The notes below the pieces were generated by a model. That model saw nothing but the letters and a program-made list of their open reading frames with translations. It searched no databases and was not told the DNA's origin. Shown piece after piece: positions 33,001 through 63,200 of a stretch of DNA of 64,000 nt (within the stretch, counting starts at the first letter, position 1; each line of letters begins with the position of its first letter). Origin of the DNA: Macrostomum lignano (lineage: Eukaryota); contig NIVC01000176.1 of NCBI GenBank assembly GCA_002269645.1, positions 682,001-746,000 on the forward strand. The letters are read 5' to 3'. The position numbers were made by a program, and so were the translations under genes.

Positions 33001-35970
33001 TGCTGTGTCAGGTTTAGTGTCAGGTGTCAGTGTCAAGTCTAGTGTCAGGTCAAGTGTCAGTTCAAGTGTCAGGTCTAGTGTCAGATGTAGTGTCAGGTCA
33101 CGTGTCTGGTCTGGTGTCAGATCTAGTGTCAGGTCTAGTGTCAGGTTTATTGTCAGATTGAGTGTCAGTTCTAGTGTCAGGTCAAGTGTCAGGTCTAGTA
33201 TAAGTTCTAGTTTCAGGGCTAATGTCAGGTCTATTGTCAAGTCGAGTGTCAGGTCTAGTGTGAGGTTTAGTGTCAGATCTAGTGTCAGGTCTAGTGTCAG
33301 GTCTAGCGTCAGGTCTAGTGTCAGGTCTAGCGTCAGGTTTAGTGTCAGATTGAGTGTCAGTTCTAGTGTCAGGTCAAGTGTCAGGTCTAGTGTAAGGTCT
33401 AGCGTCAGGTTTAGTGTCAGTTCTAGTGTCAGGTCAAGTGTCAGGTCTAGTATAAGTTCTAGTTTCAGGTCTAATGTCAGGTCTATTGTCAAGTCGAGTG
33501 TCAGGTCTAGCGTCAGGTTTAGTATCAAGTCTAGTGTCAGGTCTAGTATCAGTTCTCTAGTAGTGTCCATTCTGGTTTTTAAGGGTCCATCTGAGTATAC
33601 TCGTACATATAAATCAATACTTATATCGTAACCAGCATCACGAGCCAGCTAATCATCACGTGACCACCGCACCGCAGGCACATGAACCATCGTCTAGCAT
33701 TGGGTCAGCCTGAACCAGCCTACGATTTTCCAAGATCCCCAGCCCATCAGCAGCAGCAGCAGCAGCAGAGACAGCGCCAGCACCATCACTCTTCTTCTGC
33801 GGCAACAACAACAACAACGGACACGGCTCCGCCTCTACCGCCTCCGCGAACTGTTAGTCGCCAGAATTCTGCCATTGTGCGCCCTGTGCAGCAGCAGCAG
33901 CAGCAGCAAAAGCAGCAGATGCCGCCTCCGCCGTCGTTTCCGCCGCCTCCTCCGCCTCCGCCACATCCGCAGCAGCAACAGCAGCAGCAAACTCAGCAGT
34001 CGCTGCCACCACCGCCACCGCCACCTCAGCGGCCTTCAACAGCTCCTGTCGGTTCGCTTGTCGATGACTCTTCATCAGAGGCTGATCAGCATCAGCACCA
34101 GCATCAGCAACAGCAGCAAAAGCAGAAACTGAAGCAGAAAAGTCGAACAGAAGAAGACGGTGACACAGATACGGAGGTTGAAGAAGACTTAATCTCGTTT
34201 AGCGCCCAGGTGTGCCGGCATTTCACTAATCAGGATTATACACCTGAGATTTTCTGCGCCAAATCTGGCGGACGTAGGCAGACTGAGCATCGTCAGCAGC
34301 TCATGATGCAGCAGCAGCAGCAACAGCAACAGCAGCAGCAACAGCAGACTTCGACGCCTCAGCCGCTCCCAGATCCGGAGCCTTCGCCGACTCCATCATC
34401 ATCAACCTGCGGCGGCGTGGTTGACGTGGCCTCCCATCATCATCACCATCCGCATCATCACCAGGCCGATAGCAACAACTGGCTCTACGGCTGGAGCGAG
34501 GAACTACCGGTAATACCCGGCTTAACGCCATCGCCTCACCTGGTTACTAAGACGGCCTATTCGGAAGGCGAGCACTGGGTTCGAGGCGCGCAGATTGGCC
34601 TAGGCGCATTCGCCACCTGCTATCAGGCCAGGGACAAGCGGACCGGAGTTCTCATGGCTGTCAAGGAGATCTCATTGGTGCGCAACTGCGATCAGGAGCA
34701 GCACGAAGTTATTGAAGCTGTTCAAGAGGAAGTAGAACTGATGACCCGGCTGAGACACCAGAATCTGGTTCGAATTCTTGGGGCCACCATGACCAGAGAT
34801 CGGTTCTGCATGTTCGTGGAGTGGATGCCCGGTGGCTCCGTGTCTGCCCTGCTCAACCGGTTTGGCCCGTTTAGTGAACCAGTTATATCGTCTTATATTC
34901 AGCAGGCAAGTGGCTTTTTTTTCTTGATTGCTAGTGATTTTTATTGTGTTATCATTGTTGCTAGGCTATGGTTTCCGTTGCTAGGTAATAGTCTCTGTTG
35001 CTAGGCTATGGTTTCCGTTGCTAAGCTGCAGTATCCGTTGCTAGGCTATGGTTTCTGTTGCTAGGCTATGGTTTCCGTTGCTAAGCTGGAGTATCCGTTG
35101 CTAGGCTATTGTTTCCGTTGCTAGGCTATGGTTTTCGTTGCTAAGCTGCAGTATCCGTTGCTAGGCTATTGTTTCCGTTGCTAGGCTATGGTTTCCGTTG
35201 CTAGGCTTTGCTTTTCGTTGCTAGGCTTTGCTTTTCGTTGCTAGGCTTTGCTTTTCGTTGCTAGGCTTTGCTTTTCGTTGCTAGGCTATGGTTTCCTTTT
35301 CTAGGCTACGGTTTCCGTTGCTAAGTAATGGTTTTAGTTGCTTGGCTATCGAACTGTTACTAAGCTAGATTGAGCGTTGCTAGGAAAAAAGTACGGACAC
35401 TGCCAGTACCAACAAGCCAAGCCTGATTCCGCCCCTGTCTCCATCCCCCGCCAGGTGCTACGCGGCCTGGCCTACCTGCACAACCAGCAGATTCTGCACC
35501 GCGACCTCAAAGGCGCCAACCTGCTGGTCAGCAGCAGCGGTCGTCAAGTTCGAATTGCCGATTTCGGCGCGGCCGGCCGATTAGCCAGTCACATGACCGG
35601 GGCTGGCGAGTTCAAAGGTCAACTGCTCGGCACCATCGCCTTCATGGCCCCGGAGGTGCTGCGAGGCGAGAACTACGGCCGCAGCTGCGACATCTGGTCT
35701 GTCGGCTGCGTCATCATCGAGATGGTGACCACCAAGCCGCCTTGGGACATGCCGGATCTCAGCAATCATCTGGCTCTGATCTACCATATCGCCAGCTCCA
35801 GCGACCCTCCGCCTCTGCCGGACAATATGCATCCGGGCCTCCGGGATGTCCTTCTGCGCTGTGTTGACCCCATTCCGTTCAATCGGCCGTCCGCTAAGGA
35901 GCTGCTGCAGCACCCGCTGTTCACTCACTACCCGGCTCTGACTGCCCGGCCTGAGGGGCGGCGAGTTTGA
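27078..35970 (+). CDS. MAP3K1: MAP3K1/MEKK1 (SWIM, RING/PHD, HEAT-like region, Ser/Thr kinase); join(27078..27211,27312..27477,27969..28645,29098..29222,30026..30213,31207..31758,32572..32972,33678..34905,35455..35970), 1328 aa
   Basis: SWIM: [45 protein letters not shown]: [19 protein letters not shown]|[13 protein letters not shown]. Also [15 protein letters not shown]. Kinase: [37 protein letters not shown]. All phases match; total 3987 nt. Intron 8 is GC-AG. Confidence 0.93.
29265..29900. repeat. C/A-rich 13-16-bp minisatellite in MAP3K1 intron 4
   Basis: Core caccacccgcaacct. Confidence 0.9.
30300..31190. repeat. About 30-bp minisatellite in MAP3K1 intron 5
   Basis: Unit ccgatcccaactagtcacaagtcccaaact. 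Confidence 0.9.
32055..32360. repeat. 85-bp tandem repeat (about 3.5 copies) in MAP3K1 intron 6
   Basis: cccaatctggctcagccaatgagagagcag recurs at 32071, 32156, 32241 and 32326. Confidence 0.9.
33005..33560. repeat. 12-bp minisatellite in MAP3K1 intron 7
   Basis: Unit gtcaggtctagt. Confidence 0.9.
34955..35345. repeat. 20-bp minisatellite in MAP3K1 intron 8
   Basis: Unit gttgctaggctatggtttcc. Confidence 0.9.
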
Positions 35971-42155: not shown

Positions 42156-45100
42156 ATGTCGAACGGCAGCCTTCAGCAGCAAGCCGACAACGACTCTGAG
42201 TACGACTCGCCTGCTCAGACAGTCGACGAGCGGGACTCGAACCCGGACCTGTCGACAAAAGGCGATGGCGACGGCGTCGAGCGACGTCCAGGCGGCACAG
42301 TTCGTCGGCGTATTCGACAGCTGTACCAGTCGTTTCGTCGACGCGGTTCTGCGACGTTGGGTACGGGAGCTGACAAACGGCAGCATGAGGTTTGGGCTTG
42401 TTGAATAATGATCATCATTTTTTTACTGTTCACTGTTTGACTGTCACTCCTTGTCTGTAACACAATCTGTCACTCTTCACTGTCACTCTCTGCACTCATC
42501 TGTCACTCTTCACTGTCACTCTCTGCACTCATCTGTCACTCTTCACTGTCACTCTCTGTACTCATCTGTCACTCTTCACTGTCACTCTTACCCATCTGTC
42601 ACTCCTTACTGCCACTCTCTTACCACATGTGTCACTCCTCAGTGTCACTCTCTGAACTCATCTGTCACTCTTCACTGTCAATCTCTGAACTCATCTGTCA
42701 CTCTTCACTGTCACTCTCTGAACTATCTGTCACTCTTCACTGTCACTCTCTTACTTCATGTGTCACTCTTCACTGTCACTCTCTGAACTCATCTGTCACT
42801 CTTCACTGTCACTCTCTGAACTCATCTGTCACTCTTCACTGTCACTCTCTGAACTCATCTGTCACTCTTCACTGTCACTCTCTTACCCCATCTGTCACTC
42901 TTCACTGTCACTCTTCACTGTCACTCTCTGAACTCATCTGTTTGATTTTCTAATCGATGCTTAGTGCTGAAGGACTATTAATCAATGACATATTGATTGC
43001 CTTTCTCAATGACAATTGTGTAATAGTACATATAGCTAAACACTGGTTCAAGGACTACTAAATTAGACTTCAACCATGACCCCAGGTTTGATTTCTAAGT
43101 GCTTTCAGGCACAGCCAGCAGGCACAGAAAGTGCACATGCCTGACGATTAGAAAGTCAGTACACCCCGTGTGAGCGTGTGTGAGTGTGACGTCACACAAC
43201 CAGCGAGAGGCATTACTGCACATTCCGCAGACTCCCCTGAGCAGGCACACAAGCGTGCGGATACGTATGCAGTCATACGCACTGGCACGCACTCACACAG
43301 GAGTGTACAGCGGCCCTGACTTTATTTAACGATAGGCATGTACACTTCACTGTGCCTCGGGGCTTGGCCCTCAATGGTGTTGATTGCACGAGCAGAGCCA
43401 AGCCTGGCCGCTGACGCATCAGAGGGCTGCGCTAGACCACTAGGCTACGACGGCTCCCCCTTCATCATTTCCATGCTCCAGCTTCCTGCACAGCATCAGC
43501 AGCTGTCTGCGGAGGCGGCGGCCGCTGCGGCGGTGGCAGCTGCCGCGGCAGCAGCGGCTGCACCCAGTCCTTCGACCACAACCCGGCAACAACAGCAGCA
43601 GCAGCAGCAGCGAGGAGGAACCGGAAGCGGAACTGCCACCGGAAGTCGACTTGTAGCCGGCGGAGCGCACCAGTTTGCCTTCGCCAGCCGGCCAACTACG
43701 AATGCCAGCACCTGCGTCAGCTTGAACAACAGCGAGCGGCAGCAGCAGCAACAGTCGAATGTCAACAATGATTTCAGCAGGGGTATGGAATCCGTGCAGC
43801 CAATCATATCTTCAGCTGGGGCTACGGCTGGCGATGCAAACAAAGATGAGGATTTGTACACCGTGCTGACGGTTGATGCTGAGGAACTGAGAAACTGTGA
43901 GTCCAGTTATTGTGCTATCCTGCATAGTCAGAGCTTGTGGAGTTTCGAGCTTGGGAAGTTTCGAGCTTGGGAAGTTTCGAGCTTGGGAAGCTTCAAGCTT
44001 GGGAAGTTTCGAGCTTGGGGAGTTTCGAGCTTGGGAAGTTTCGGTCTTGGGAAGCTTCGGTCTTGGGGAGTTTCGAGCTTGGGGAGTTTCGAGCTTGGGG
44101 AGTTTCGAGCTTGGGAAGTTTCGGTCTTGGGGAGTTTCGAGCTTGGGGAGTTTCGAGCTTGGGGAGTTTCGAGCTTGGGGAGTTTTGAGCTTGGGAAGTT
44201 TCGAGCTTGTGAAAGCGACCCCTACTGTTAGATTACAATCTTTATAGATGTATTGCAGCCTCAGGGTCTTTTGGTAGCTTGGCACCTGCCTCTGTTAGCT
44301 ATTCTAATATTTTTAATTGGCACGAATGAAAATCTTAATTTAGTTTTTATTGCATTATTTAATGAATGGCATCACCTGAATGTTGGAAATCAAAAGAAAA
44401 AGACGTGACCTTTCCTCAGATGCTGTAGCCTTTCTATTTTAGCTAGTTCCTAATCCAACCAATGGATTTTAACTATTAAAAAAATTCAGAATTTTCTTGC
44501 AAAACACGAACAGTAGTAGGAAAGTGGTACCCTCCACCGCCATCGCACCGGATTGGCCGGGGCACCCGGCCAATCAGGCGAGAGGGCCCCCCCAAAGAGG
44601 CCCACCCCCGACCCCAGACCCACCACCGCCGCACCCACCCCCGACCCAACGCCGCCACGCACCCACCCCCGACCCAAACCGGGCCCCCCAAACCGGGCCC
44701 CCTCCTATCCTGCACCCCATCACAAACCAAGGCCCCTCCTGTCCTGCACCCCATCTCATACCAAGGCCCCCTCGTGTCCTACACCCCGTACATCCCATAC
44801 CAAGGCCTCCTTCTATCCTGCACCCCTTCCCAAACCAAGGCCCCTCCTGTCCTGCACCCCATCTCATAACCAAGGCCCCCTCGTGTCTTACACCCCGTAC
44901 ATCCCATACCAAGGCCTGCTCCTATCCTGCACCCCATCCCAAACCAAGGCTCTGCCTGTCCTGTACCCCATCCCATACCAAGGCCCCCTCCTGTCCTGCA
45001 CCCCCGTGCATCCCATAGCAAGGCCCCTTCCTGTCTAGCATCCCATCCCAAACCAAGGCTCCCTCTTATCCTGCACCCCATCCCATATAACACGGTCCTT

Positions 45101-48100
45101 CTATCCTGCACCCCATACCAAGGCCCCCTCCTATCGTGCACCCCATCCCATATAACACGGTCCTTCTATCCAGTACCCTATCCAAAACCAATGCCCCCTC
45201 CTAATTTCTAAACCCCAATCTTATTCCCTGTCTCACCTACCGCTTTTAAGGCTCTAGCCAAGGCAAAACCCGCATTCAATGCTTTGGCTCTACTCTTTTC
45301 TTGCTGTGGCGGGTACAGCGGGAGGTCGTTAGACCTAGACCGCTACTTCTTGGTGGCCAGAGGGCCGCAAGAAGGTCCCGCCACCTCCTGTTGTGTGGGG
45401 TTGGATTCGGGGTTCGGATTGGTTATTGCTATGGAGCGGGAGCTGGTGTTACTTACCAACTCCAGTCATATATAATCTCGCGCACAGCCGGAAGGAAAGC
45501 TCACAGTTTTTGACAGTGAACAAAATGGAGTTCAAGACATTATCGAACAGATTTCGAATCGGCGTCAGGTCGCACTCGAAGTGCATCAGCTTCAGAAAGT
45601 GGTACAAATTTGCCGAAGAGTATCGACCAGGTCTGCCTGGCATGGAGCTCACCGTCCACCAGTTTTGCCACTTGGGCAGCCTGAAGGAACGACTGGAAGA
45701 GTTTGCAAGAAAGTGTATCGACGCGCAATGCCTTCTGGGCGGCAACAGGCAAGTGGTTGTGCAAAATGGCGTAATCACACTCTGGCGCCTTCCAACTGTA
45801 CTCGGACCGCCGGTGCACCTAAGGCATGCCTTACCGCTTCCTACTACACTTTGGCGCGAAGTCGGGGCTCAAAAGCAATGGGTCCTAGACAAAATTGACA
45901 AGCGAGAGCCTCCGGTCGAGCCGCCGATCGGCGATTCATGGTGGATGGGATACCACCCTACGGAATCTGAAGAGTGTGCAGCATGGGCAGCAAAGCTTAC
46001 ATTTGACCAACTGATGCAAGTACCTGACAGGCAGTCGGCAGATTGGGACGACCACTGGGGGGGGGGCCTTCCAAGCAGTTCAGGCTGAATTTAGAAAGAG
46101 ATTTACATTCGAAACTCTGGAAGAGCCACCAACAGCTGGGAAGAACCAACAGCCTTCATTCCACCAGCCACCAATGAAGCGACGCGCAATGCATGAAGCG
46201 ACAACTGGTCATTTCGTCAATTAACTTTTTTTTTAATATAGTTTTGAACCATAGTACTGATCATGCACTGTTGTATATATTGCTTTGTCAATACTGGCCA
46301 TAATATTGCCCCATCATGCTTTGATTCCTGGCGATAATACTGTTTTGTAAATACACGCGACGGGCCTTAATACTGCCCTTCCATTCTTCATAAACTTTTT
46401 TTGTGCTAATACGAGCTTTTAACATGTAATTTTATGCTTTGCAATCCATGGACCTGCCAATAAAATAAAAAAAACGTTTCATTTTCGTAAGCATTGTTGC
46501 ACAAACATAGTCGCATTCGCGTTTATTTTTTCTTATATTTTGTACACAAAAAATACAGAAGTAAAGTTACAGCAAAAATATTATTATTATTACTCGGTGC
46601 ATAGGCAGATCTCACTACTACTGTTATGCCGTAGAGGAGCTCAGTCAGAGTCCAGCAAAGTAGGTTCGGAATCCTTCGGATGCTTGATCTGGTAGCAAAA
46701 TGCGGGAGAGGGCATCAGCTGCAGTCTGAGCCTCAACCACGCTGCGAGCACCAGCTATTATACAGCGATATGAATGAAACAAAATCAACTTTACAGAGGC
46801 AGTAAACTCGAGCACAAGTCCGTTAAACATTTCCGGCTCATAGGTGCCCCGATGCGGCCATTTAGACTTGACTTCCCCCAACCGGAGTGGATGCCGACCC
46901 GCGGGAAAGGCCGTCACAGAGGTAATAGTCTTGATGCGAATCTGGGGCAGACTGGTCAATCGCAAGAAGTCCGCACACAGCTTCACAATCTTCTCCGTCT
47001 CTGCGAGAGCTTCCTCCAGGCTTTTGGCTCCACAGACAGACACTTGTCCGGTCGGATACACCAGCGCGGTTACTCGATGCTGCCCGCTCTTCATCACCAC
47101 TGCCAGTGTTCGAGGATGAACCAGGCGATGGCGGATTGTGTGATACTGAGGCAGATGAAGAGTCAGGAAATTCGCTAGTTGTGGCAGACCCACCCGGGTC
47201 GCCAGGTCGGCTCCTGTCACGATGTTTGTTACGCGAATTGTTGCGACCATCTTTAGACAATCGAGAGAAACGCCAGTGCCTGCTGCAGATCGCTACTTTT
47301 ATAGACCCGTAGCCGCGAGGCCGCAGCCAATCAGCGTACAGCGCCACTTTGGCCAGGGCGCAGGGCAACACGTACTTTGAGGCACTCGGAAAGGCTAGGT
47401 GTGCGAGGTCGTAGACAGGCTGCAGCAGCAGACGCGACAGGAACTGGCACTTGACATCCCCCTTGCTAAATATCGGGCCTTGCAAGTGAGAGATATCGCT
47501 CCAGAGACAAGAGTAGGGTCGGAACCCACTCCTGTCCCAGTCTAGACCGTGCCGCTTATTGGTGAGCCAGTAGCAGGTTCGTCGCTGTCCTCTATCAAAG
47601 AGCTCAAAGCTGTGCGGCGGCTGGTAGTAATAGTAATGAGCCGTCGTTTGACCGCATGCAAACTCAACCCATGCAATTTCCTTAATCACAAAGTCCTCTG
47701 TTTTGTAGAGGTGCGGAAATCCTTCAAAATCAATGACAATCATCTTGGCCACTTGATCCACTTGCCGTATCCTTTCTGAGACTGAGTCTTCTTATAGCCT
47801 TGCAGTCGAGGTTTTTTAGGACTGGACTTTTTTTCCCGAGGCTTTTCCAGCAATTTTGTAGTGTTCAGACCAACTGCAGACAGAGGTACATGATTTTCTT
47901 GAAGACTCGTAACAAACTCATTAATCCCATTCGGTGGCTGAAGGTACTTAGAGTACGTATCTTTAACTATGAAATGCAACAGGTCCACGATATTTGAGTT
48001 GTACAACGGTTTACCATTGACAGAAACTTCATACGTATCATCTATGCTAATCGACTTGCACTTTACGGTTATGAAGCTAATCAATGCCTGCAGACGATGA

Positions 48101-51100
48101 TGCCATTTCTGATTCACCGTCAGATATAAAACCTCCTTCCACTGCGGTTCTTTGTGAATTACTGGAGGCTGTTCTTGGGTCGCACTTGCCTGCAACTGCT
48201 GCACGCAACGCTCGTCCCTAATCTTGCGCAACTGTTTTTCCGCCTCTAGCTCGGGTTCACAGACTGTCTCCATACCCCTCTGATTCACAAGTGCCTCATA
48301 CTGCAACCGGGGTACCAGTATCATTTCCTTGTACATGTCTTTTTATACAGGTGAAAATCAGAGGAAGACAACGAAGGATATGCGGGTGTGAGAGATTGCG
48401 CCGAGCCTCTTTCACACTTTTGCTTTGTGCAACAAGCCGGAGAGTATTTCGATATCGCCTGAGTCTCCGCTTCAAGCTATCTTCACAGCCAACTTTTCCT
48501 GCTAGTAAGTTGATAATACACTCGACCAAAAAGCAAATGGTGCTTTTATTTGCATAGGTAAGTATGCAGCGACGCAAGGATATAGTGCCCTCACAAAAGA
48601 CAGTTATTAGTGCAATGTGTTTATCCATGTTTAACTCAGTGCAGAGACTGAGCCATTCTTATAGATAAACTCGCTGCGGGGCCTCATCGGGGAGAAAATT
48701 GGCTCTCAGGCGCAGTTCATGGGGTGAAGCGGGGTGAAAATCAAGCAGCAGATAGCGCTGATCTCCATCTCGCACCAATCGATCCATCAGTTCTACTAGC
48801 AGAGTGCGCCGTTTGGGAAAGCATTGCTGACTTAAAGCTTGGACCGCAGAGGCGTCTCTGGGGTTGTTGAACAACACAATGTAGGTGCAATTTATGCTAA
48901 TTGTGCGCCACTCTCTGCCTTTGAAAAATAGATTTTGCGTGATGAGAATGACAAAGCAGGGCTTGTGGTGGGCCTCACGGGTGAACAGATGTCGTAGCTC
49001 TCGACTTGCAGCTGCTTCATCCAGTAAATCGTCAATCACAATCAGGTCATGGGGCTGCAGATCCAAATTCGATAATCCTTCACATACTTGCACTCCTAGC
49101 CGCCGCAGAGTCGCGTGGAGTTCCGGCTGCGGGCATCCGTGATACCAAATCATCCGCTTGGGAGGTTGGTCGAACAGAAGCAGTCGTTGGGACAGCAGCC
49201 GCAAACAGAATGTTGATTTTCCCGCTCGAGAAGGGCCCGAAACCATCATGCAGCCTCCCATCCGCAGTCTGGAATCAAACACCTTGCAACTGATTTTTGA
49301 GTCTGAGTATGATTGCATCGTTTTGAGCCACAGCTGCCGGGTGCAAAACCTTGATGAACAAGGCATTATATGACATTCTCTTATGCAGTCGATGGATCAA
49401 GTAAAAAATGCAATACCAGCCGCATAGAGTTGACGAACTGGGCTGAACAGGGACCGTATTCCATTGTAGCACCATCCGCGTCGGTTTAGTTTTCTTTAAC
49501 CAGCTCTTCATATTTTTACTCAAGCCTCCCAAAGAGTTGAAAATTTCACAATGCACTTTACTGGTTACTACTCCAGCAATCCAGTGACCGCACTCATCAT
49601 TCCATGGCTCATACAAAATGAAGCAGCAGGGTCGGCAGGTTGAATCGAAAAATGGTGTCACTGTTCCAACTGTAAAATTTCCGCAATAGGCATCCCGCAC
49701 AGATGTGGGGCAGCGAGAAATGAACGCTTCCAACTCTTCGGAATTCATGCTCTGCGATAATCCAGCAGCACATCTCTCTCTTTAGTGATTTCCATGCATG
49801 AATCATACACGCACAAGCAGATGAGTGTGACTGGCTGTGCGAGAGCGTTGGAAAAGCGAATATCCAGTCGTAGTTGACCCTGCCTATGACCAAACCAGCT
49901 GCCTACTTCATCGCCACTTGGACTAAGGTCAAACGCAAGCAGATAGGCACTATTTCGAAATTCATCAAAGCTTTTGCAATATTTTCCACTGAGACTGCGG
50001 GCAAACTGCAAAAATTCGGATGAGTGCTGCTGCTGTGGTTCTATGGGCTGCCCAGTAATTGGCTCTCCATTGACAAACAGGCTTAAACTATTCAATCCAA
50101 ATGCTTGGAACCAAAACGGGTTGTGGTGCAGAGATCCATTGAAAGCAGTCTGGCTGACCATTCCAAGGAGCACAAATTTTGGCAGCTGACCATGCGTGAT
50201 TGAATCGAGACTCTTGTTTCTTGTCCCAACAGAAAATGTGAATGTCTGAAGCTCTCTTCTATCAAAGTGGTAGAGAGCATTACGCTGTGAGAGCCCCTGT
50301 TCATGTGCGAGAGCCACTGTTGGGTTTACTCGGAGACGCCTCAAAAGCAGAATAGCATTGTCGACTTCAACACGGTATTGAACTCCATTATTGGGTACCA
50401 TCAACGAAAAAGCGCTGCAGTGCCGGGTCAATTTGACCTGCAGGCTGATTTGGTTTAGCAGATACTGCCGGATTGAGAAAATGTCTGAAAACAACGGGCC
50501 GGCATATTGCACAACAGCAGAAGCCTCATGCAATCTCGCACGATTTGTGAATCCATGATTTTGCTCCCCAATGGTGTCACTCTCTCCAGCGGTGTCTGAT
50601 AATAACCTGCGGCCGCCAGTTCTTGAAGCTGGTTGGCATTGCTGCTGGTCAGCACTTGAAGCATTGCTCGATATGGGTAGAGCTGGTCCCCACCACTCAC
50701 AACCCGCTGGTTGAGTTTTACAGTGACATCACGAAACAGGCTGGCAAGCGGGAGATTCGATAGTCCGACATGGGCATCATCTTCATTAGTCAGCTCTGCA
50801 TTGTTTATCACACGAGTTATCCGGCAAGTGACTTGCAGCACTGTGGCGTGCAGATCGGTGTAGTCCTCAGAGGAGGCGTGGCAGTCGAATTCAATCGGTG
50901 CATCAGGAGTCGTGAGACTGCCGATGGGATGAAAGTCCATGAAGTGAGACCTATCCACTCCAATTTCATGCGTCATTGGCTCAAACAGATTGAGCCGTGG
51001 ATTTGTCCGATACATTATGAGAGTGAATCGAGCACTCGGTTGACTGTTTTTAACGGTATCTTGCGCTTTTTTGAGGGCACTGGCTTGCTCTTCTTTGGTT

Positions 51101-54100
51101 TGATTTTTGGCGTTTTCTTATGTTTTTTCTGCGATGGAGGTGGTATGCGGGAAAGGAGAACTGCATTTTCATGAGTCTCAGGGGGCAGTCGAGATAGCAG
51201 CGATGTGGGATATCCGTGCCCATGAGGAAGTTTGAAGCAACTGCCTCGATAAAACTCGGTCACTTGTCGAATGTCCATGACTCACGCAGCTCAAAAGTCA
51301 AGACTGTGGGTCCAAAGAGTAATCGGATAGATTCGATACAGTTGATCGGTCGTAGCCGTATTTGCATGTGTGTTAAGCGGTGGTTTGCTGCTATTGGGAA
51401 GAACAGCTTATTCTTATAGATGAGTTCCGACCGGTGATCCTGCAAAAGACCACCAATATTCAAAGTCTGCAGTGCTGGAGTAAACTGATTTCCAATACGA
51501 TTGAGTGCGATCAGATTAGCGCGGGCTAATCTGATCGCACTCAACAAGCAGCAAATCCGTATTCCAGGCCGGGTTCATGCCAGGTCGTTCAAAGCATCCT
51601 GCCTGCTCGCTATAGGTTGTCTGCGCAGCACCAAAGATTTTCCCCAGCTGGCTGTTTTCTGGAAAGATAAATCTCTCACAGATCCCAGCCATTTGATAGC
51701 ATACATGATGGCTAACTGAATCAAGGGTAAATTTAATTAGATGCACATTTATAGGTGTTTCGCCAATTCCAGACTCATCAAAATCTTTTACAATCAGTAA
51801 AGCATTTACTGCATCAATCAGCTCATTCAAGTCATTGTAGCGCCCAGCTGGAATTTCAGCACATTGCATTGAACCCTCAAGCTGATAAAATAGCGACAAC
51901 GGATGAGGGATGGTGTAGATGCAGTTGATAAAACTGATTCCAAGCAGACCCAACTCATAATCCAAAGCAGAATCCAGCAGCACAGGATGCAGCAGCTCAG
52001 CAGTAAAGTTGGCCGGGTCATCATCGGGGCCGGACATTACCTGAAATCTTTGCCTTTTCATATTTTTCTTAAGTCTTTTTCGTCAATCCAACTGGGTTTT
52101 TCTGAATCGCGCCACTGAACCAAATACCGAATCTTTCCACTCTTCAGCTTCTTAATGTTGAGAACCTTGTCGATGATCCACAGCTTCTTGTTTCCTGTCA
52201 CTTGCTGCATTTCCGGCTCGTAAAACTTGCCTTCCAACTCTTCACCTCGGGCATCGATCAGAGTGTACATGTATGGATAATGCTTGGGGTGGAGGGACTT
52301 GACTTCAAATACTTCCTCACTCCATCCCCTTGTGTATCCCTTGGTGAATGGGTTGGCCAGATTGCGAAGAGAGATTCGCACCATCATTCCTGCCTTGAAC
52401 TTTGGTCTGGAGACCTTTTCACGAGTCTCAGGAAGCTTCCCATCGTAAAGCCGCTGCCAAATTTCCATCTCGTTTGACTTGTCGACATCAACTGGTCGGC
52501 TTTGAATACTCCGATGAATACTCTGGTTGTATGCCTTTGCTAAGGGTTGAAGCACATCGGTCCAGGTTAATGTTGACTTGTGACGGAAGTACCGCCACAT
52601 TCGGGATTTCAGTGTGCGGTTCCATCTCTCAATGACTGCGCATTTCTGGTCACTACTTGATGTGAATGCATGAATTTTGTGGTTTCCGCAGAGGGCTCGG
52701 AACTGGGTGTTACAAAACTCTTTTCCACGGTCGGTCCGAACTGCTCGTGGGCATCGAGGGTGAGCTCAATTTAGGATCGCTTCGAATCCGGCTGCAACCT
52801 CCTCGGCTGTCTTGCGGCGCACCGGCTGAGCCCAGGCAAACTTGCTGAGCACATCAATGCAGCATAAAATATATCGTACGCCGCCATTGTACTTGGCAAA
52901 CGGCAGCATTTCAACAAGGTCCAGTTCCCACTGGTCATCCATGCCCCGCACCACAATCGGTGCTCTCCGAAAGTTTTTGCGTTTATCTCTATGCAGTGTG
53001 TAGACATCTTGGTCTTGGAGCCACGTTTTTACCTTTAATTGTAAAAACTGGAAATTGCTAGCTAGTGGATAAAACTAAAAACCTAAGCTGGAATTTTCTA
53101 AAAAATCATTGGTTTAGAAGTATATCGTATATAAATACCTGCCCTACACTAAACTTGGGTCCGTGCTGTTTGTGCAACTCTCGTTTTAATGCTTGATAGC
53201 CGCCATACCTGCCCGGTCTACTGCAGTCAAAATAAATACCTGGCAGAAGGTTGGAAATTGCCTTTTTCTTTTTCATTTTTCCAAATTTCTAGTACCTATC
53301 ATTTTCTTATGCCAAACACCTGGCTTGAAAAAAAAACTACCCACCCCCACCAGTTTCTGCGGATTTAGCGTTTCTAGCCTCTGTTGTGCACGAAAAATCA
53401 TGCATGTTTGCACAAAATACATACATTTCAATGGGGATTTTTACTCGGACCTGTGCACGAAAAACCTCGACACTTTGCATACTTTCTAACACTGTGCACG
53501 AAAACTTGCATACTTGTGCACAAAATACATGTATTTCAATAGGGATTTTTACGCAAACCTGTGCATGAAAATTGACGGATGTTGTCAAAAAAGTCACGTC
53601 ATATTGCGCACTTTTAATCACTGTGCACGAAAACTTACATACTTGTGGATAAAATACATACATTTCAATGGGGATTTTACCCCAGAGCTGTGCACAAAAA
53701 ATGACTAATTATGGCAAAAATATTCTTGTGAAAGAGCATTTTTCTCTCCTGCAGTGTACCAAATATCATAGAGTAAAGCTTGTATTTATTATTTTTCAAA
53801 ATATAGTATGTTCGTATTAAATTTACATGCATATAGTTAAAAATTAAAGATACGTGAAAAGAATGTTATTGTGAGAAAAAGAGCTTGCTAGTGTCCAGAT
53901 CGCACTGGCCGACACTGGCTTGTCGTCTTGAGAATGTGCACCAGAACTAAATCCCCGTTGAAAATCATCTGGTCGCGGAATGCTGACTTGGCCACAGGCT
54001 TTGAATAAACCAGCCGGTAGTCCACTTGCTTGCGAACATTCTCTAGGGTCTACAGGGAGTTGTTTAGCAGCTTGTTGTCTTTCTTGAACTCATTCTTGGC

Positions 54101-57100
54101 CTTTTGCACGACGCTCCATGCGGTAGATAACAACTTGCGGTTGACACGTCAACACACCGAGTGGCCCTGATTACCCAGCCACTGCCATTGCGTAGGTACT
54201 TCTCTATCCGGTTGAGGATAGTCTGCATGTCGTCAGAGAAGTAGTACTCCTCCTCACTCTGGAGAAGAGAGTGGACCTTGGCAGCAAACCAGGCAGTGTT
54301 CTCGGCGGCGCAGCTGCCATTAATGATGCGCTGCATCAGGACCCCGAGGCGCAGCTGAACTTTGATGGCGGTTCCTGGCTCACGTTGATGCTGGGTGATC
54401 AAGTCAATGAAAGCTTGACGAGTGTTTTCCAAAACATTCATCGGGTCGCCGCATGCACTGGCCCGGTAAAGTTGGGACCTGCCATTAAACGCCTCCTTAA
54501 TCAGTTGAAAATGAATCGTTGGGGAGTCATCTGACTCAAACAGTGCTGGTATCGCAGGACATACCGCATAGTGCTCCTCAATGCCCCCGATTACTGATGA
54601 CTCGCAAAAGTCGCAAGTTATTTGCATTTTCGTTGTATTTTTAATTCAATCTAAAATAAATAAAAAATCTATGGGGCCGAGGTGCTTTATTTATAAAGGG
54701 TACTGGGGCCCTTCTCCCGCAGGGTCCAAACCAAATCGTTCACCAGGGACCTATCGACCAATAGAATCCCTTCTCCACATTACTCGGAAATCACTTCAAA
54801 TGCTTGCTCGACCAATAGAATCCCTTCCCCTCTCTACTAGGAAATTCCAAGCAATCGGGCCCTCTACCGGATCACATTGAAACTCTGTGCTGCGTGTCAC
54901 CACACGCGGTAGGAGGACACTCGCCAATGGACACTCATTCACATCTCGATACCCACCCTTGGACACTCAACCAGACACTCGGCTGCCCGACCCCTCATCT
55001 GGCCTGCTCGACCGGCCTGCCCGACCCCACTCCTGGGCTTGCCCGACCCATTTCTCCTGCCTCCGGTATGGGATGGGGTGCTGGACAGGAAGGGGCCTTA
55101 GTATGGGGTGCAGGATAGAAGGACCGTGTTATATGGGATGGGGTGCAGGACAGGAGGGGGCCCGGTTTGGGCTCGGGGGTGGGTGCGTGGGTTTGGGGTC
55201 GGAGGTAGGTGCGGCAGTGGTGGGTTTGGGGTCGGGGTGGGCGTCTTTGGGGGCCCGGTTTGGGTCGGGGGTGGGTGCGTGGCGGTGGTGGGTTTGGGGT
55301 CGGGGGTGGGTGCGTGGCGGCGTTGGGGTCGGGGGTGGGTGCGTGGCGGTGGTGGGTCTGGGGTCGGGGTGGGCGTCTTTTGGGGGCCCTCTCCCCTCAT
55401 TGGCCGGGTGCCCCGGCCAATCCGGTGCGATGGCGGTGGAGGGTACCACTTTCCTACTACTACGAACTTTTCAAAAAACCCTAATCTGTAGCATTCGAGC
55501 GTATATTTCTAAATGATAAAAATTTAAGAGCTATTTATAGATTTAAAAATCGACTTTTAATTATAATGTACATTGCATACGGGTGGGTGTTCTCAACCAA
55601 TGTACATTTGAGTGTGTACATTGTCCTGCCACGCGGGGTCCGAGTGTGTGTGACCTTGGAAAACCCCCCGGCCCCGGGACGTTTAATCTAAGACCAGTTT
55701 GAATCTGATGTGATAAGTAAGGATCAAGATACACGTGGTTTCCATTCCAAATCGCAGATCTAGCTATAGAAGTCCATGGGATCAGGATACACGTGGTTTC
55801 CATTCAAATCGCAGATCCAGAAACCCACGCATTGGATGGTCTTTCCATTCCAGATTGTCAGGCCTAGAATTTCATGCACGTTATTAAAAAATCCAACAAA
55901 CACAAGTAACGCATAGGCTCAGGGGCTCCGCATTGCAGCCGAAATCTGATCCGGTTTTTCTACCTGCCTGCAAGGCTGCGCTTCTCCATAATGTTTGGTT
56001 TGGAACTAAATATCCATTTTTACATGCCGTATTGATTCTGTCTGGAATTTGATCTGTTTGCCAAACTTGCTCTGCAGACACTTTTTTGGTAGCATTTTTC
56101 TGCGATTGAATGTGGTAGCTTCTGATTGTAACTTTCTGGTGGATCTCTTTATAGAGAATTAAATTCCGATATGTAGTGTAATAGCTATTTTAGAGCAGAA
56201 ATTTCATAGTATTTTCCATTCAAGTAAATTCTTCTAAGACCCTTCAATTTAATAATTGAGAGAAAACTCCCGACTTGAAATTCGACAAAAACTTTTAGTC
56301 TATGGTCGAAACCTCTGCCAATCAAGCCACCATTTCGATCAGCAGAGTATAGAAACATATAAGTGGCCTAGTGGTTAGAGCGTCGGACTCACGACTTGAA
56401 GGTCGGTGGTTCGATTCCCGATCCCACTGGAACAATTAGTGTCCTTGAGGCAAGACACCATGACTCTGCATTGCTTCAGTTCACCCAGCTGTAAAATGGG
56501 TGCCAGCATTAGCTGGGGTAATTCCCCATAGTGGCGACTCCCCAACAGCCGTACTCAGACTTCAGATGCGCCGCGCAATAGCTGCGTCTGAGCTGTCGGT
56601 TGAACATCTGGTCCAATTGGGGCAGGGTGCAATCAATTAGTGGTATTAATTAATAATTTTTATTCCTATCTATGAATAAATCAAAGCTCCCAGGGTCATC
56701 TCGACCAAAAATTGCTATATTTAATTCCCCCCTCCTTCACCCCTCCCGCCACGATCCCCAGTCTACTCGGACGTCTACGTTGTCGCCGAATGCGAAGGCG
56801 TCCAGCTGAAGACCAAGCGGACCAACAAGCTGGAGGACATCCAGACTTCGTTCATTTTCTATCGCAAGCATAGCACCACGAAGCCGATCGAGTTCAAGAT
56901 GTACGCCAGCCATCAGAGCCTCCGACGGCGCGTGCTGATTGGCAAGCTCAGCCTCACGCTGCAGCCTGGCGAGCCGTTCGACGGGATGAGCGTCAGGCGG
57001 AGCATCCGAGAGCGACCGGAGCTGCGTCGGGACGGCGGGTCCGGGCTGCTGTTCAACTTCCTGTCCGGGACGCTGCACACACAGCATCTTTCCGGAGTGT

Positions 57101-58740: not shown

Positions 58741-60207
58741 ATGGCGTCATCCGCCTCTTTAACCCCCGCTGAAGCCGGGGCCCCGGCAACTCCGGCCGGT
58801 GACTCTGGCACCAGCGCCGCCCCACCGGGGGCAGATGGGCTTGCCGCCGGCTCGGCTGGTGACATGCCCGCACGCGCAACCGGGCCCTCCGCTGAAGCCC
58901 GACGCACCCGCAACCAACGCCGCAACGAGCGGCGACGGCGACTACGGGGTACTGCGGGCCGGCCACCGGCGGAAGGGGAACCTAGGGAGGGCGAGGCTGC
59001 TGTTGGGCCGAAAGGAACCACAGCAACCCCTGCCCCCCAGGATACAACCCCCGCTGGTGAGCCACCCAGTATACCTGCTACAAGCGCGGCCGGGCCTTCG
59101 GGAACCGCCGCCACCAACTACGCCTCAAAGGTCAAGCTCCAACCGGCGGTCATCGTCTTCGGGGAAGAGCAGGACCTCACGGCCGACGAGCTCGACAGTG
59201 CCTGGCGCACCATCGATGCTGCGCTCATCGACCAGCTCCTGGCGGGCCGCCCTGTGAGCGTGGTCAAGTCTGCCAAGACCGACGGCTGCATCTTCATCTG
59301 GTGCAGCTCGGAGGAGAGCAGCCGCAATCTACGCGAGCTTCTGCCAAAGCTGAACTGGCCCAAGAAGCTCGGCAAGCTCGTCTTCGCCAGCGAGGGCGAA
59401 CGACAGAAGACCCAGCGCTTTCGCGTCTGGATCCCGGCCGGCAGTGCCATTAAGTCCGGAGATCAGCTTAGGCAAATATTGCTAAAGCTGCACCCCGACC
59501 TTAAGGTCAACGGGCTCCTACACCACGCCACTTCCCGCAAGGAGAAGGGGGCTACGGTGATCCTAGGGCTCTCTGATGACTGGGCTAAGCGCTTGCCGCC
59601 TAAGTCCACAATTCATATTGGTCTGACTCAGCTGACCATCCTCCGTTGCGAGGAGCGGAAAGCTGATGAAGCCAAGAATGCCAAAGCTTCCGAAACCGGA
59701 ACTGGGGCCCAGGCTCCTCCGGCAAAGAAGCCGAGGCAAACGGCCGATCCTATGCCCGGTAAGGCAGTTCGCGCTGCTGAAACCGGAAATCGCAATCGCA
59801 GACCCGCCAGGAGCACCCGGAGGTCCGGCCTGATCCAGCGCGCGCTGGACCAGGCCAAGAACCTTCGTGCGCATCGTGAGCGGGCCCGCGCTTCTCGCGC
59901 TCCACCCCAACAGCCAGAAGGCCAGACTCTAAGCGGGGAGGCTCCGACCGACTGGTTCGAGTCTGTGACTCACCAGGAGGCTGGCGCCACCCGCATCGAC
60001 CTGACCGACGAGGCAGAGGGGACGGGCAGTGACAGCACCGAAGCACGCAGGAGAGGCGACGGTAACGTCCACGCTGGGCTCACGTCCGCGGAGGACTCCA
60101 CAGCCACCCTAACTGCTGAGGACGCTGAAACTCCCATGGAGGTCTGCGGGTCACCCACCACTGAAAAGGAGGAGGATGACCTGCTCAACGATTCCCCAAC
60201 TGCGTGA
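58741..60207 (+). CDS. ORF1 (gag-like) of the non-LTR retrotransposon, 488 aa
   Basis: Long open frame directly preceding ORF2; no zinc knuckle recognised. Confidence 0.75.
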   Translation: MASSASLTPAEAGAPATPAGDSGTSAAPPGADGLAAGSAGDMPARATGPSAEARRTRNQRRNERRRRLRGTAGRPPAEGEPREGEAAVGPKGTTATPAPQDTTPAGEPPSIPATSAAGPSGTAATNYASKVKLQPAVIVFGEEQDLTADELDSAWRTIDAALIDQLLAGRPVSVVKSAKTDGCIFIWCSSEESSRNLRELLPKLNWPKKLGKLVFASEGERQKTQRFRVWIPAGSAIKSGDQLRQILLKLHPDLKVNGLLHHATSRKEKGATVILGLSDDWAKRLPPKSTIHIGLTQLTILRCEERKADEAKNAKASETGTGAQAPPAKKPRQTADPMPGKAVRAAETGNRNRRPARSTRRSGLIQRALDQAKNLRAHRERARASRAPPQQPEGQTLSGEAPTDWFESVTHQEAGATRIDLTDEAEGTGSDSTEARRRGDGNVHAGLTSAEDSTATLTAEDAETPMEVCGSPTTEKEEDDLLNDSPTA

Positions 60208-60209
60208 TA

Positions 60210-63200
60210 ATGATCAGCAACCAGGGAATCCATTGCCTGCAGATTAATCTGCAGCACTGCGTCGCAGCCTCGGTCAACCTTATGCGTTACGCCGAGCTCG
60301 ACAAGCCGGGGCTCATCCTCGTCCAGGAACCCTGGACTCTCAGAGGTAAGCCTCAAAACGCCCCTGCTGGCTACAATTGTTTTTATACTTACCCTCGCGA
60401 GGCCAACCAGCCTCCCAGAGCTTGCATCTTTGCGAGCAAAACGCTCAGTGCGTGGCTCAGATCGGACCTGTCCAACAGGGACATCTGCGTCATCCAATCC
60501 GAGGACCTTCTTCCTGGGAAGACCACCCTCATTGCCTCGGTTTACCTACCAGGCGATGCTGCGGTCGTCCCCAGAGCCCTCGCTACGCTGGTAGAGCTCT
60601 GCTCTGCCAAAAACTACGAGCTCATGGTTGCCGGCGACATCAACGCCCACCACACTCACTGGGGCAGCACTGGCATTAATCAGAGAGGCGAAGACCTCCT
60701 AGCCTACGTTGCCTCTACGACCCTCGAGTTCTGCAACTCTGGGTCCACCCCTACCTTTGACAACGGACGGTGGTCGGAGGTGATCGACGCTACGCTCGCA
60801 ACGCCCAGACTCTACCAGAGTATTGGGGCGTGGCGGGTGCTTCCAGTGTCCTCACTATCGGATCACAAGTTCATCTCCTTCAACCTAATGGCCGCGCGTA
60901 GCGCAACTCGTGTTATGTGGAGACGGAACGCCAGAAATACTGATTGGGAAACCTTCGGGCTCGCCCTGAAGGAATTCCATCGGTCTCCTGGCCAACCATT
61001 CACGATCACGTCGTGCCGAGAGGCGGATGAGTGCGCGACTGTTTTGACAGAGACGCTAACCGCCGCCTTTGAGGCGTCCTGCCCTTTAAAAGCCTATAAA
61101 GGGAAAAAATCGGCGCCGTGGTGGAATCCCGAGCTCGGCAACCTCCGTCGCAGGGCTAAGAGACTCCACCGCAGAGCAACTAAAACTAAGAGCCCTGCAG
61201 ACCAAACCGCCTATCATGAAGCAATTCATGAGTTTAAAAGGCAGGTTAGGAATGCAAAGGCTCAAAAATGGCGACAATACTGTGAGGAGCTAGAGGGCTC
61301 ACGCCCCACCTCCAGAGTTGTGAAAGCGCTCACGCTGGACAAAATGTCTAAGCTCTCCTCGGTCAAACGCACCGACGGTACGTCCACGGACAACCCAGGG
61401 GAAACGCTTGATGTAATGCTCACTGCGTTTTTCCCTAACGAGCCAGCTAACCAGACCACTCCGGATCACTCGGAGGGAGGTCACGCGCTGGCTGCATCTA
61501 TCATCACGGAGGACCGCATTGTGAGAGCGGCAAATTCCTTCAAGCCTTTCAAAGCCCCAGGACCCGACGGCATTGTACCGGCCCTTCTAAGAGAGGCGGT
61601 TAAATGCCCAGGCTTCCTGCGCAAACTTTGCAGCCTTCTTCGGGCATGCATCACGCTTGGTTATGTCCCGCAGGCATGGACCGAGGCAAAGGTGATCTTT
61701 ATCCCTAAGCCAGGCCGCCCGGACTACCATTCTATCAAATCCTTCAGACCGATCAGCTTGACCTCCTCCCTGGTCAAGCTGATGGAGAGACTGGTGCTTT
61801 GGCGCCTTCTCTCTGTTGAGCTGAAGAACAAACCTCTCAGCGAGAACCAGCACGCTTTTCGGGCGGGTCGCTCCACTGAAAGCGCGCTGCACGTCCTGGT
61901 CGATAAACTCGAGAAGGCCGTGCTTGGTAGTGGCTTTGCTCTGGGGATCTTCCTGGACATCATTGGCGCCTTCGATAACGTCCTCTTTGAGGCGTTCCGA
62001 AGAGCTCTTTGTGAGAGGCTAACGCACTCACATCTCACCAGATGGATCATGTACATGATCAGCCATCGCACGGCCACCGCCAGTCTGCTGGGCTACCAGA
62101 GGACGGTCCCCGTCTGCAAAGGTAGCCCGCAAGGTGGGGTGCTGTCTCCAGTTCTCTGGAATATGGTCATCGATGAGCTCCTCCGGGATGTTCGGCCTGA
62201 CCCCATTCTGAAAGTTGGATATGCGGACGATGTCACCGCGGTGGCATCTGGTCCGTCCCCTGATACCCTCAGGGACCTTCTTCAGAACTTCATCTACGCT
62301 GCTGAGCAATGGGCGGACCGCTGTGGTTTAAGGCTCTCTGAGACTAAGACCGCAGCGATCATGTTCACCAGCAGGACCAAGTGGCAGATTCGGCCGCTCA
62401 CGCTTTACGGAAGGGAAATCCCCTTCTGCAAGCAGACTAAATGTCTGGGTATTACCCTGGACCACAGGCTGAACTGGTCTCCCCACGTTCAAACAAAAGC
62501 CAAAAAGGCCTTCGCAGTCCTCGCGCAATTGCGCAGGGCCGTCGGCACCACCTGGGGGCTCACCCCCAAGCGCCTCTGGTGGATCTACACTGCAATGGTT
62601 AGGCCCGCTATCTCGTATGGCGGCCTGATCTGGGCTAGCGCCCTGCAGATAAAGACCTGTCTAGAGGCTCTCAGGAGAGCGCAAGGGCGCGCTTGTCGCA
62701 CGATCATGAGCGCCCCTCCGTCTGCTCCTTACGATGGCCTCAACGCCTTCCTCAACATTCCTCCGCTGGACATCTTTGTCCGCAGGGAAGCGGCTAAGAC
62801 TGCCCGCCGTCTAGCTGACGCTGGCATTCGAATCCAGCCCCATAGGGCCATGGCTAAGCGCAAGCTTCTGCCCCACGCTGACCTCTGCCTCAAGGACTTG
62901 AGAGACAGCGGCGGGCTCCACGTCCTATCTGACGGCGAACCCCGCACTCTCAACCTCTTTCAGCGCTACAAGGTCACCATCCCCTCTAGGGATGCTGCCA
63001 ATGACCACTGGAATTTCCAGGAGGTCCATTGCTACACGGACGGATCCATCAAAGACGGTCGCGCCGGCTTTGGGGTCTGCATCATCATCAACGGCCGCGT
63101 AATTGCCACGCATGCCCAGCACACTGGTAGACTCTCCACAGTCTTCCAGAACGAAGTCCTTGCCATCAGCTCTTGCGCTGCAGAGCTAAACGCCAAGGTT

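Follow-up and report, generated by a model that had tools for sequence, protein, structure and literature searches.

Mavericks/Polintons (adintoviruses) are characterised by TIRs, a protein-primed PolB, an rve integrase, a packaging ATPase, a protease, capsid proteins and a core gene bearing pX, and the elements described here resemble them in these features, for PolB by way of sister copy L069 and lineage B. A figure legend in Starrett et al. 2021 (PMC8502044) gives TBP-like genes in related MELD viruses, and the word "promoter" is absent from the accessible part of that paper. In the openly accessible literature covered, nothing was found on animal Maverick promoters, their TATA boxes or a TBP regulon. 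Virophages and PLVs, which in the accessible literature have promoter motifs in common with giant viruses, offer a parallel: a common motif precedes the structural genes of a polinton-like element. In contrast, the Maverick motif is TATA-like, and its candidate reader is encoded by the element itself.

A further precedent, drawn from the accessible parts of two papers, is KSHV ORF24 with its TATTWAA late promoters (PMC12529657, PMC6541308). ORF24 and the Maverick protein are both virus-coded, have a TBP fold with an altered DNA face, and accompany a modified TATA box that is the sole clear promoter element of structural genes. ORF24, however, is a large protein in a six-member complex, with four intact phenylalanines and no TFIIB-contact acids, whereas the Maverick TBP, at about 190 aa, consists of the bare core, with F99 lost, Y at F116 and the E188-equivalent kept. 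Other members of an ORF24-type complex were not found in the Maverick elements, and the motif is TAAG-type rather than the TATT motif that, with an ORF24-type protein and its partners, defines the herpesvirus vPIC.

The window, the whole 64,000-nt stretch of Macrostomum lignano DNA analysed here, contains a 10,950-bp element at 44512..55461, assigned to lineage A, whose TIRs open with AGTAGTAG. The 6-bp target duplication ACGAAC flanks it (44506-44511 and 55462-55467); these features, together with the rve integrase, packaging ATPase, protease and major capsid protein, identify it as a Maverick/Polinton. Lineage A has at least 30 copies in the genome (G000), with identities of 94-100%. A chimeric origin of the element's right arm was considered and rejected; the arm is the common form, from which only copies L069 and L111 depart. 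Three further divergent Maverick lineages (B, C and D) occur in the M. lignano genome. Compared with known Mavericks, the distinguishing features are the presence of four lineages in one genome, each with a divergent TBP-like gene (tentative in D), and a split of promoter-like boxes into two classes.

Genes and boxes of the window element

The genes of the element are, with one exception, encoded on the reverse strand:

45525..46088, + strand: orfA, PC4-like (PF02229, E 0.01)
46645..47250, - strand: divergent TBP with altered DNA-contact residues (PF00352, E 5e-18)
46862..47743, - strand: exo, conserved Maverick ORF, putative exonuclease by label (no Pfam match)
47740..48336, - strand: o198, conserved Maverick ORF
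48296..48628, - strand: core-gene homologue (ORF 48628), by homology to the pX-bearing core gene
48659..49318, - strand: packaging ATPase
49275..49748, - strand: cysteine protease, without an upstream box (PF02902, E 0.009)
49745..51015, - strand: major capsid protein gene, in two frames in the window copy
51015..51278, - strand: o87, small basic ORF; by synteny, it precedes the capsid gene in lineages A-D
51516..52061, - strand: putative penton/minor-capsid-like ORF, labelled by synteny; longer in copy L069
52058..53007, - strand: integrase with chromodomain, fragmented in the window copy
54064..54627, - strand: N-terminal stub of PolB, with 51% identity to the ORF preceding the PolB domain in L069

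Several assignments lean on relatives. The lineage-B homologue of orfA is 30% identical and matches PF02229 at E 2e-9; a core-gene relative in L051 matches adenovirus pX/mu (PF05829, E 2e-5); and the integrase is 53% identical to an ORF in L034 that matches PF00665 at E 5e-14. PolB is represented in the window by its N-terminal stub only, and PF03175 is matched both in L069, a sister copy, and in lineage B. The reading frame of exo overlaps that of TBP by 389 nt.

The boxes upstream of these genes are as follows:

45469..45476, + strand: canonical box TATATAAT, 56 nt upstream of orfA
47296..47303, - strand: canonical box TATAAAAG, 53 nt upstream of the TBP ATG at 47250, within exo
47789..47796, - strand: box TATAAGAA, 53 nt upstream of the exo ATG at 47743
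48656..48663, - strand: variant box TATAAGAA, 35 nt upstream of the core gene (48628), including the ATPase stop codon
49363..49385, - strand: two candidate ATPase boxes, upstream of the ATPase start at 49318
51115..51122, - strand: variant box CATAAGAA, 107 nt upstream of the major capsid ATG, within o87
51411..51418, - strand: variant box TATAAGAA, 140 nt upstream of o87 (ORF 51278)
52066..52073, - strand: variant box CTTAAGAA, within the final codons of the integrase; the lineage-B box is identical
54688..54695, - strand: canonical box TATAAATA, 68 nt upstream of the PolB stub (54627)

An earlier note on this DNA had described TATAA boxes at a fixed 52-54 nt before the TBP, exo, ATPase and orfA starts, with further boxes before PolB and the small ORF at 48628. 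The sites at TBP, exo, PolB and ORF 48628 are present at the distances it gave, as is the ATPase box (TATAATGC, 49370-49363, at -52). For orfA, TATAATCT does lie 54 nt before 45525, but the box is better taken as TATATAAT. The ATPase TATAATG has no lineage-B counterpart at the same position, and a second candidate at -67 (CATAAGAG, 49385-49378) is, by sequence, the better match to the family motif. Three boxes were correctly placed inside upstream coding sequence, at exo codon 147, o198 codon 181 and protease codon 127. The reported CCAAT boxes are also present, with ATTGG (reverse CCAAT) preceding the TBP box by 28 nt, the orfA box by 51 nt and the PolB box by 67/121 nt; CCAAT also occurs 39 nt before the box at 48663. 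No box had been seen before the capsid, penton, protease or core ORFs. This is true of literal TATAA alone, and the protease has no upstream box in the window, but variant boxes precede capsid and penton, and the core gene is the boxed ORF 48628 itself.

Box positions can be compared between copies and lineages. In lineage B, CTTAAGAA occupies the exo codon that matches the window's TBP box, and o87 has TTTAAGAA 149 nt upstream. Homologues of exo, both those of lineage B and those of TBP-less elements, have a box 46-60 nt upstream. The penton-like ORF has CTTAAGAA 12 nt upstream of its first ATG and 36 nt upstream of its second, and ORF 48336 (o198) has TATAAAAA 11 nt upstream, a box absent from the earlier note. 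The terminal stretch carrying orfA's TATATAAT instead precedes PolB in copy L069, and in subfamily A' an arm homologous to the PolB-box arm precedes orfA.

Enrichment, spacing and conservation of the boxes

The window null consisted of 1500 shuffles in which proteins were preserved (synonymous codons) and non-coding runs were shuffled. TATAA lies 30-75 nt upstream of 6/11 starts (shuffle mean 1.42, p=0.0007, uncorrected for motif choice), and the best 3-nt window holds four of the 11 (mean 1.22, p=0.0007, likewise uncorrected), so the predicted clustering beyond shuffled sequence was borne out. The fixed spacing was not: variant boxes lie 30-158 nt upstream (27 boxes, four loci and the window), with 16/27 at 44-56 nt.

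Across lineages, enrichment is carried by longer motifs; TAAG alone is not enriched. TTAAGAA is among the top two 7-mers in all four lineage-B blocks (7-9 observed vs 0.5-0.7 expected, with 0-1 occurrences on the opposite strand), and TATAAGC is the top 7-mer or near it in four of six lineage-C blocks. In synonymous-shuffle tests, YWTAAG[AC] occurs 30-60 nt before 5/10 and 5/9 starts in B1 and B2, before 3/7, 4/8, 2/9 and 3/9 starts in C1, C3, C4 and C5, and before 2/9 starts in the window (shuffle means 0.14-0.57; p 0.0005-0.04).

Sister copies retain the boxes of TBP (29/29), exo (27/28), ATPase (26/26), orfA (26/27) and core (25/26), as had been expected; these counts are of covering, near-identical copies including the window's own, and the test is weak because no more than 20% of positions are variable. 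The capsid box CATAAGAA is retained in 23/24 covering copies. In lineage C, despite saturation at synonymous sites (identical codons, 28-46%), TATAAGC still precedes the capsid gene in 6/6 loci. Boxes are also retained despite shifts of frame or stop position. The boxes are constrained as DNA and are most likely core promoters: the sense-strand enrichment before starts and the DNA-level conservation of Pol II TATA core promoters are both observed. An initiator consensus is not enriched downstream of flatworm boxes (5/41 vs 6.4 by shuffle). In 6/27 cases, the stretch from box to ATG contains a splice-acceptor-like site (shuffle 1.4, p=0.002). The presumed RNA data comprised four runs, as contigs only, and clusters of starts or ends are absent from those contigs.

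Two box classes and a divergent TBP

The non-canonical box is lineage-specific, being YWTAAGAA in A and B and TATAAGCW in C. Virion and packaging genes of the three lineages comprise 32 with the non-canonical box, two with a canonical box or both and 12 boxless (32/34 boxed genes non-canonical), and regulatory genes (PolB, PC4, A's TBP and the like) comprise four, 12 and one, respectively (12/16 boxed genes with host-type TATA), in a post hoc count for which motif classes were set after inspection, homologous genes were counted repeatedly across lineages and several gene-class assignments are inferred. Exceptions are the window's exo, which is classed as regulatory and has a variant box, and the lineage-B TBP gene, which has only CTTAAGAA upstream (72-81 nt, measured from TAAG). 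For TBP in C and D, unclear starts prevent the assignment of a box; in L056, TATATAAA lies 184 nt upstream, and four others lack both classes near the first ATG. The split runs against the earlier proposal of a single class marking non-capsid genes. In A, B and C it is virion and packaging genes that carry the distinctive box, and the four boxes grouped in that proposal mix the two classes, those of TBP and orfA being host-type.

Host promoters are canonical at 10/12 HSP20 loci and 2/4 histone H4 loci; one HSP20 locus carries both CTTAAGAA (-158) and TATAAGCA (-254), and a second carries CTTAAGCG (-201). Lineages C and D were rejected as TBP-less controls, C because of its own very divergent TBP and D because a TBP is probably present; D has canonical TATAAATA before all six virion genes despite its TBP-like ORF. 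Elements of other hosts that are TBP-less by HMM are L113 (TIR-bounded), L117, L120 and L123. Of eight boxed virion genes in L113, L117 and L123, seven have canonical boxes (TATAAA type), and L113 has a single TATAAGCA before one gene. No TBP-less Maverick was found in the M. lignano genome, so this comparison does not separate effects of host from those of TBP. YA[GT]T, the arthropod initiator, lies 28-35 nt past 10/12 boxes of L117, L120 and L123 (shuffle 2.1, p=0.0002), evidence in favour of a TATA role for such sites in these insect-type elements.

The element TBP is modelled with the two-repeat saddle fold of the TBP family (AlphaFold2 pLDDT 89.7; TM about 0.7 to the TBP fold) and shares only about 25% identity with host TBP. 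All 11 element-type TBPs carry F116Y, N159T/S and V161T, with T124 and T215 changed (yeast numbering), at positions that, together with F99, are conserved in 134-144 of 149 matches, mostly cellular. As in cellular TBPs (PF00352), F190 and F207 are retained, N69 is retained in A and B, and the E188-equivalent, the acidic TFIIB-contact residue before F190, is invariant. F99 is lost, where the alignment is uncertain, and the family's set of four intercalating phenylalanines and two asparagines is incomplete; without F99, the protein might bind DNA poorly. P191, which according to the accessible part of PMC12529657 favours T as the first base of the box, is missing from A and B, where boxes frequently begin with C; lineage C has both P191 and a main box beginning with T. 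Between diverged copies, where measurable, dN/dS is about 0.16-0.24, indicating purifying selection, and between A and its 85% subfamily it is about 0.8. The lineage-D TBP-like ORF has profile E values of 5e-8 to 1e-3 and no Pfam match. Element TBPs separate from cellular TBPs in the tree, and a single origin is unproven because of long branches. A homologue search returned only 2-3 close proteins, without genomic context; a profile including host TBP was dominated by cellular TBPs, and viral contigs searched with TBP, capsid and ATPase alignments yielded little.

Candidate readers of the variant box

By analogy with herpesvirus ORF24 and TATT, the variant box is, somewhat more probably than not, a late promoter read by the element TBP. 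Counting against this are the canonical boxes of lineage D, the lack of an initiator consensus after flatworm boxes, the boxes CTTAAGAA, TATAAGCA and CTTAAGCG at two host HSP20 loci, the single TATAAGCA of L113, the variant boxes of the window's exo and of TBP in B, the acceptor-like sites, the loss of F99 and the dN/dS of about 0.8. Host TBP or TRF might instead read all boxes, with the variants as weak TATA and the element TBP acting otherwise, for example as a decoy, by TFIIB titration or in host shut-off. TATA-type boxes before genes of TBP-less Mavericks, the canonical boxes of lineage D, the single TATAAGCA of L113 and the loss of F99 and N159 are all compatible with this account, which is nevertheless unlikely: CTTAAGAA fits TATAWAW in no register and yet is fixed before most B genes, host boxes are canonical, and mixed boxes would be predicted, as in L113 and the insect-type elements, rather than one 8-mer per lineage. 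Quite improbable is a virophage-like dependence in which TAAG would be the initiator for an RNA polymerase supplied by a large DNA virus as helper. TAAG is an initiator in baculovirus late promoters, and here it is an invariant core of the variant boxes of A, B and C ahead of structural genes, with no initiator about 30 nt downstream in flatworm boxes; the accessible virophage literature also has promoters common to virophages and helpers. Against such dependence, the same genes have TATAAA in D and in TBP-less elements, an initiator-like motif follows at +30 in the insect-type ones, TAAG by itself shows no enrichment, and we know of no helper virus for these Mavericks.

Trans-splicing occurs in flatworms, and the variant box could be an RNA-processing signal (branch or leader trans-splicing) that splits a long transcript into single-gene mRNAs. 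The box is strand-specific, the genes are tightly packed and the acceptor-like sites exceed expectation, but 21/27 boxes have no such site, and the shuffle null disrupts natural pyrimidine runs. The box also alternates with true TATA boxes at homologous sites and mismatches the branch consensus yUnAy, making this a very improbable account. Least probable of all is the earlier note's own interpretation of one TATAA class at fixed spacing as an autoregulated, non-capsid regulon of the element TBP. It draws on the clustering of four starts and on the variant box of the B TBP gene; it conflicts with the range of spacing, with the box before capsid, penton and core in all lineages, and with the host-type boxes of A's TBP, PC4 and PolB. 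What survives is the element TBP as a plausible reader of a box class. Autoregulation is unlikely in the window lineage because its TBP box is canonical, and is possible in lineage B.

The class split suggests a built-in early-to-late gene switch, for which we infer transcription starts, element-TBP binding and timing. The boxes would be minimal Pol II core promoters of two classes, embedded in upstream genes. Host TBP would act early through host-type TATA boxes, some with CCAAT, on regulatory and terminal genes, namely PolB, PC4 and either TBP or exo, the gene next upstream of it. The element TBP would then recognise the variant box of its lineage and switch on a late class comprising the core, penton, capsid, ATPase and integrase genes. 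More tentatively, each lineage's captured TBP may have co-evolved with its own box as a private code, giving several orthogonal TBP/promoter pairs within a single genome, a one-protein early-to-late switch and a minimal, independent parallel to the late transcription of herpesviruses.

The per-gene box list provides exact sites for mapping starts and tells candidate early genes from late ones. Shifts in TBP specificity could be studied on these natural TBPs, whose altered base contacts are paired with altered boxes in several lineages. Should the element TBP prove to be the reader, a protein of 190 aa would stand in for the six-member complex of herpesviruses, and the private code, if true, would speak for a timed virion programme kept by these Mavericks.

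The Maverick of the window and its close copies

The window contains a Maverick/Polinton, a member of the Mavericks, whose TIRs begin AGTAGTAG and whose target duplication is 6 bp. Its genes and the other features of the window are as follows.

44512-55461: Maverick/Polinton
minus strand, within the Maverick: PolB stub, integrase (in pieces), penton-like ORF, o87, major capsid gene (two frames), protease, ATPase, core gene, o198, exo, TBP
minus strand, within the Maverick: TBP gene, PF00352, E 5e-18
plus strand, within the Maverick: PC4-like ORF (orfA)
11996-12619: RsmB-type methyltransferase ORF
14281-14919: PHD ORF
17857-20544: PWWP ORF
25304-26582: perfect inverted repeat, 539 nt, spacer 201 nt; it could be a MITE-like element or have arisen during assembly
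31306-35970: exons of a host protein kinase, probably MAP3K-like, with a TOG/HEAT-like piece
58741-63913: non-LTR retrotransposon encoding endonuclease, RT and RNase H

At least 30 copies of this Maverick (lineage A), 94-100% identical, are present in its own genome. In the copies compared by coordinates (G000, the host genome), the gap from the ATPase block to the PolB-side arm (window 53700-55000) is roughly as short as the window's, so lineage A may spread largely without a whole PolB. The terminal promoter arms of PC4 and PolB (window 45388-45511 and 54680-54935) are swapped between these two genes in some copies (L069, L111, L046-L048): a second orfA arm stands at the opposite end in L069 (before PolB) and in L111, and the PolB arm is found before orfA in A', an 85% subfamily of A.

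TATA boxes in the window and in divergent lineages

An earlier note described TATAA boxes 52-54 nt upstream of four Maverick start codons; all six of its boxes, their distances and the reverse CCAAT boxes are correct, and the clustering exceeds a shuffle control (4 of 11 starts within one 3-nt window, p=0.0007 in 1500 protein-keeping shuffles, uncorrected for motif choice). The feature is real, but it must be reframed. Across the window and four other loci, variant boxes lie at distances of 30-158 nt, with 16 of 27 at 44-56 nt; the supposedly fixed spacing is therefore a local cluster inside a broader range. The proposed lack of boxes before capsid-type genes fails in substance, as YWTAAGA boxes lie upstream of o87, a small basic ORF (140 nt), the capsid gene (107 nt), the penton-like ORF (12 or 36 nt) and the ATPase (67 nt), which has two candidate boxes in the window. 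The ORF starting at 48628 is a core-gene homologue. The boxes noted for TBP, orfA and PolB are of the host type, or canonical; that of exo, a conserved ORF and candidate exonuclease, is variant (YWTAAGAA) in lineage A and canonical in lineage B. Close sister copies keep the boxes and are too alike for this to be proof of conservation.

Three further Maverick lineages of the host genome, B, C and D, were found by protein searches; about 20, 10 and 8 copies were taken from the many listed, and statistics were computed on one per subfamily. Lineage B has the same gene order (TBP 34-36%, ATPase 45% identity) and carries CTTAAGAA or TTTAAGAA upstream of TBP, core, ATPase, capsid, o87, penton and integrase. 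Lineage C (ATPase 33-36%) carries TATAAGCW upstream of penton, core, capsid and small basic ORFs, and the box of lineage D is TATAAATA. The lineage boxes are top or near-top enriched 7-mers in 4/4 B blocks and 4/6 C blocks, and the strand opposite the B boxes is almost devoid of them. Against synonymous shuffles, six B and C loci reach p=0.0005-0.008, TATAAATA in D p=0.0007 and the window p=0.04. The box within the gene preceding capsid is retained in all six C loci, where identical residues use identical codons in just 28-46% of cases, and in B2 and C the reading frame of the box shifts while the box itself is kept; the constraint therefore acts on DNA. One lineage-B copy has an LTR retrotransposon inside it, and a lineage-D copy has a P-element-like transposase next to it (L066, L094).

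When the genes of A, B1, B2, C1, C3 and C5 are sorted by box type, virion, packaging and integrase genes have non-canonical boxes only in 32 cases, canonical or both in 2, and none in 12. PolB, PC4, TBP, exo, dUTPase and one unknown ORF have 4 non-canonical, 12 canonical and 1 without a box (Fisher p=1e-6, a value that makes the contrast look stronger than it is, since motifs were defined post hoc, homologues counted repeatedly and unknown ORFs classed by inference). Host promoters are canonical at 10 of 12 HSP20 loci and 2 of 4 H4 loci; variant 8-mers also occur far upstream at two HSP20 loci.

The element TBP

AlphaFold2 confidently models the element TBP as a TBP saddle (pLDDT 89.7; Foldseek E 4e-13, TM about 0.7), with 25% identity to host TBP. 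Diverged B and C copies show purifying selection (dN/dS 0.16-0.24 where unsaturated), and A versus A' gives about 0.8; the TBP gene partly overlaps exo. F190 and F207 are retained throughout the 11 element-type TBPs (two of unknown context), which have in common F116Y, N159T/S, V161T and altered residues at T124 and T215; F99 is missing from all eight that span that position. In PMC12529657 these positions are listed among TBP DNA contacts, and P191 is said to favour T at box position 1. P191 is absent in A and B and retained in C, paralleling C- versus T-starting boxes across these three lineages; D neither conflicts with this rule nor adds support. An acidic residue two positions ahead of F190 is invariant in element TBPs, and is compatible with TFIIB recruitment.

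The open frame of exo runs on through 323-389 nt of the TBP gene, with the same frame offset in A and B, whose TBPs are just 35% identical (window 46862-47250; L031, L034, L038, L041). Lineage C (L051-L064, L107) has dUTPase and deoxynucleoside kinase genes, the latter overlapping or fused with the TBP frame. In the host, an intronless TBP occurs along with a TRF2-like gene and a third, partial TBP-family match (L070, L071, L072).

Proposed regulation and Mavericks of other hosts

The most likely reading, held with somewhat better than even confidence, is a two-step one: host TBP would first drive the terminal and regulatory promoters, which are canonical, after which the element TBP would read the variant box and turn on the virion genes. 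Because the TBP gene of B has a variant box only, positive feedback may operate in that lineage, perhaps set off by transcription running on from exo's canonical promoter. The proposed two-step logic works like KSHV ORF24/TATTWAA (PMC12529657, PMC6541308), although the Maverick itself is no member of that system. TBP-like genes of related viruses are named in a figure legend of Starrett et al. (PMC8502044; bioRxiv 697771). A literature search confined to main texts turned up no study of TATA boxes in Mavericks.

That host factors alone account for the boxes is unlikely but the strongest competitor to this two-step reading. It is improbable that TAAG is the initiator of a helper virus. An RNA-processing signal, to which acceptor-like sites in 6 of 27 cases (1.4 expected) lend something, is more doubtful still, and slightly behind it comes the original proposal of a non-capsid class forming the regulon of the element TBP, possibly autoregulated, given the virion-gene boxes and the broad distances. 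The RNA data consisted solely of contigs and favour none of these readings.

Among Mavericks of other hosts lacking TBP by HMM, L113 is bounded by TIRs, and a profile search of it found no TBP; L117, L120 and L123 are possibly incomplete. The boxes of these elements are heterogeneous TATAAA types; among the virion genes of L113, L117 and L123, 7 have a canonical box, 1 a variant and 10 none. TATAAA boxes also lie 34-63 nt upstream of ATPase, exo and other genes in L117, L120, L123 and L091. Of 12 boxes in the insect-type elements, 10 are followed by YA[GT]T at +28-35 (shuffle 2.1; first spotted by eye, in related loci), the expected spacing for a TATA box plus initiator. Lineage D, with a tentative TBP yet a canonical box, does not cleanly fit a pairing of TBP with the variant box. 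Given TATAAA boxes and initiator-like spacing in TBP-less elements, one TATA promoter per gene looks general among animal Mavericks; what is peculiar to the TBP-bearing lineages is a fixed, mostly non-canonical 8-mer.
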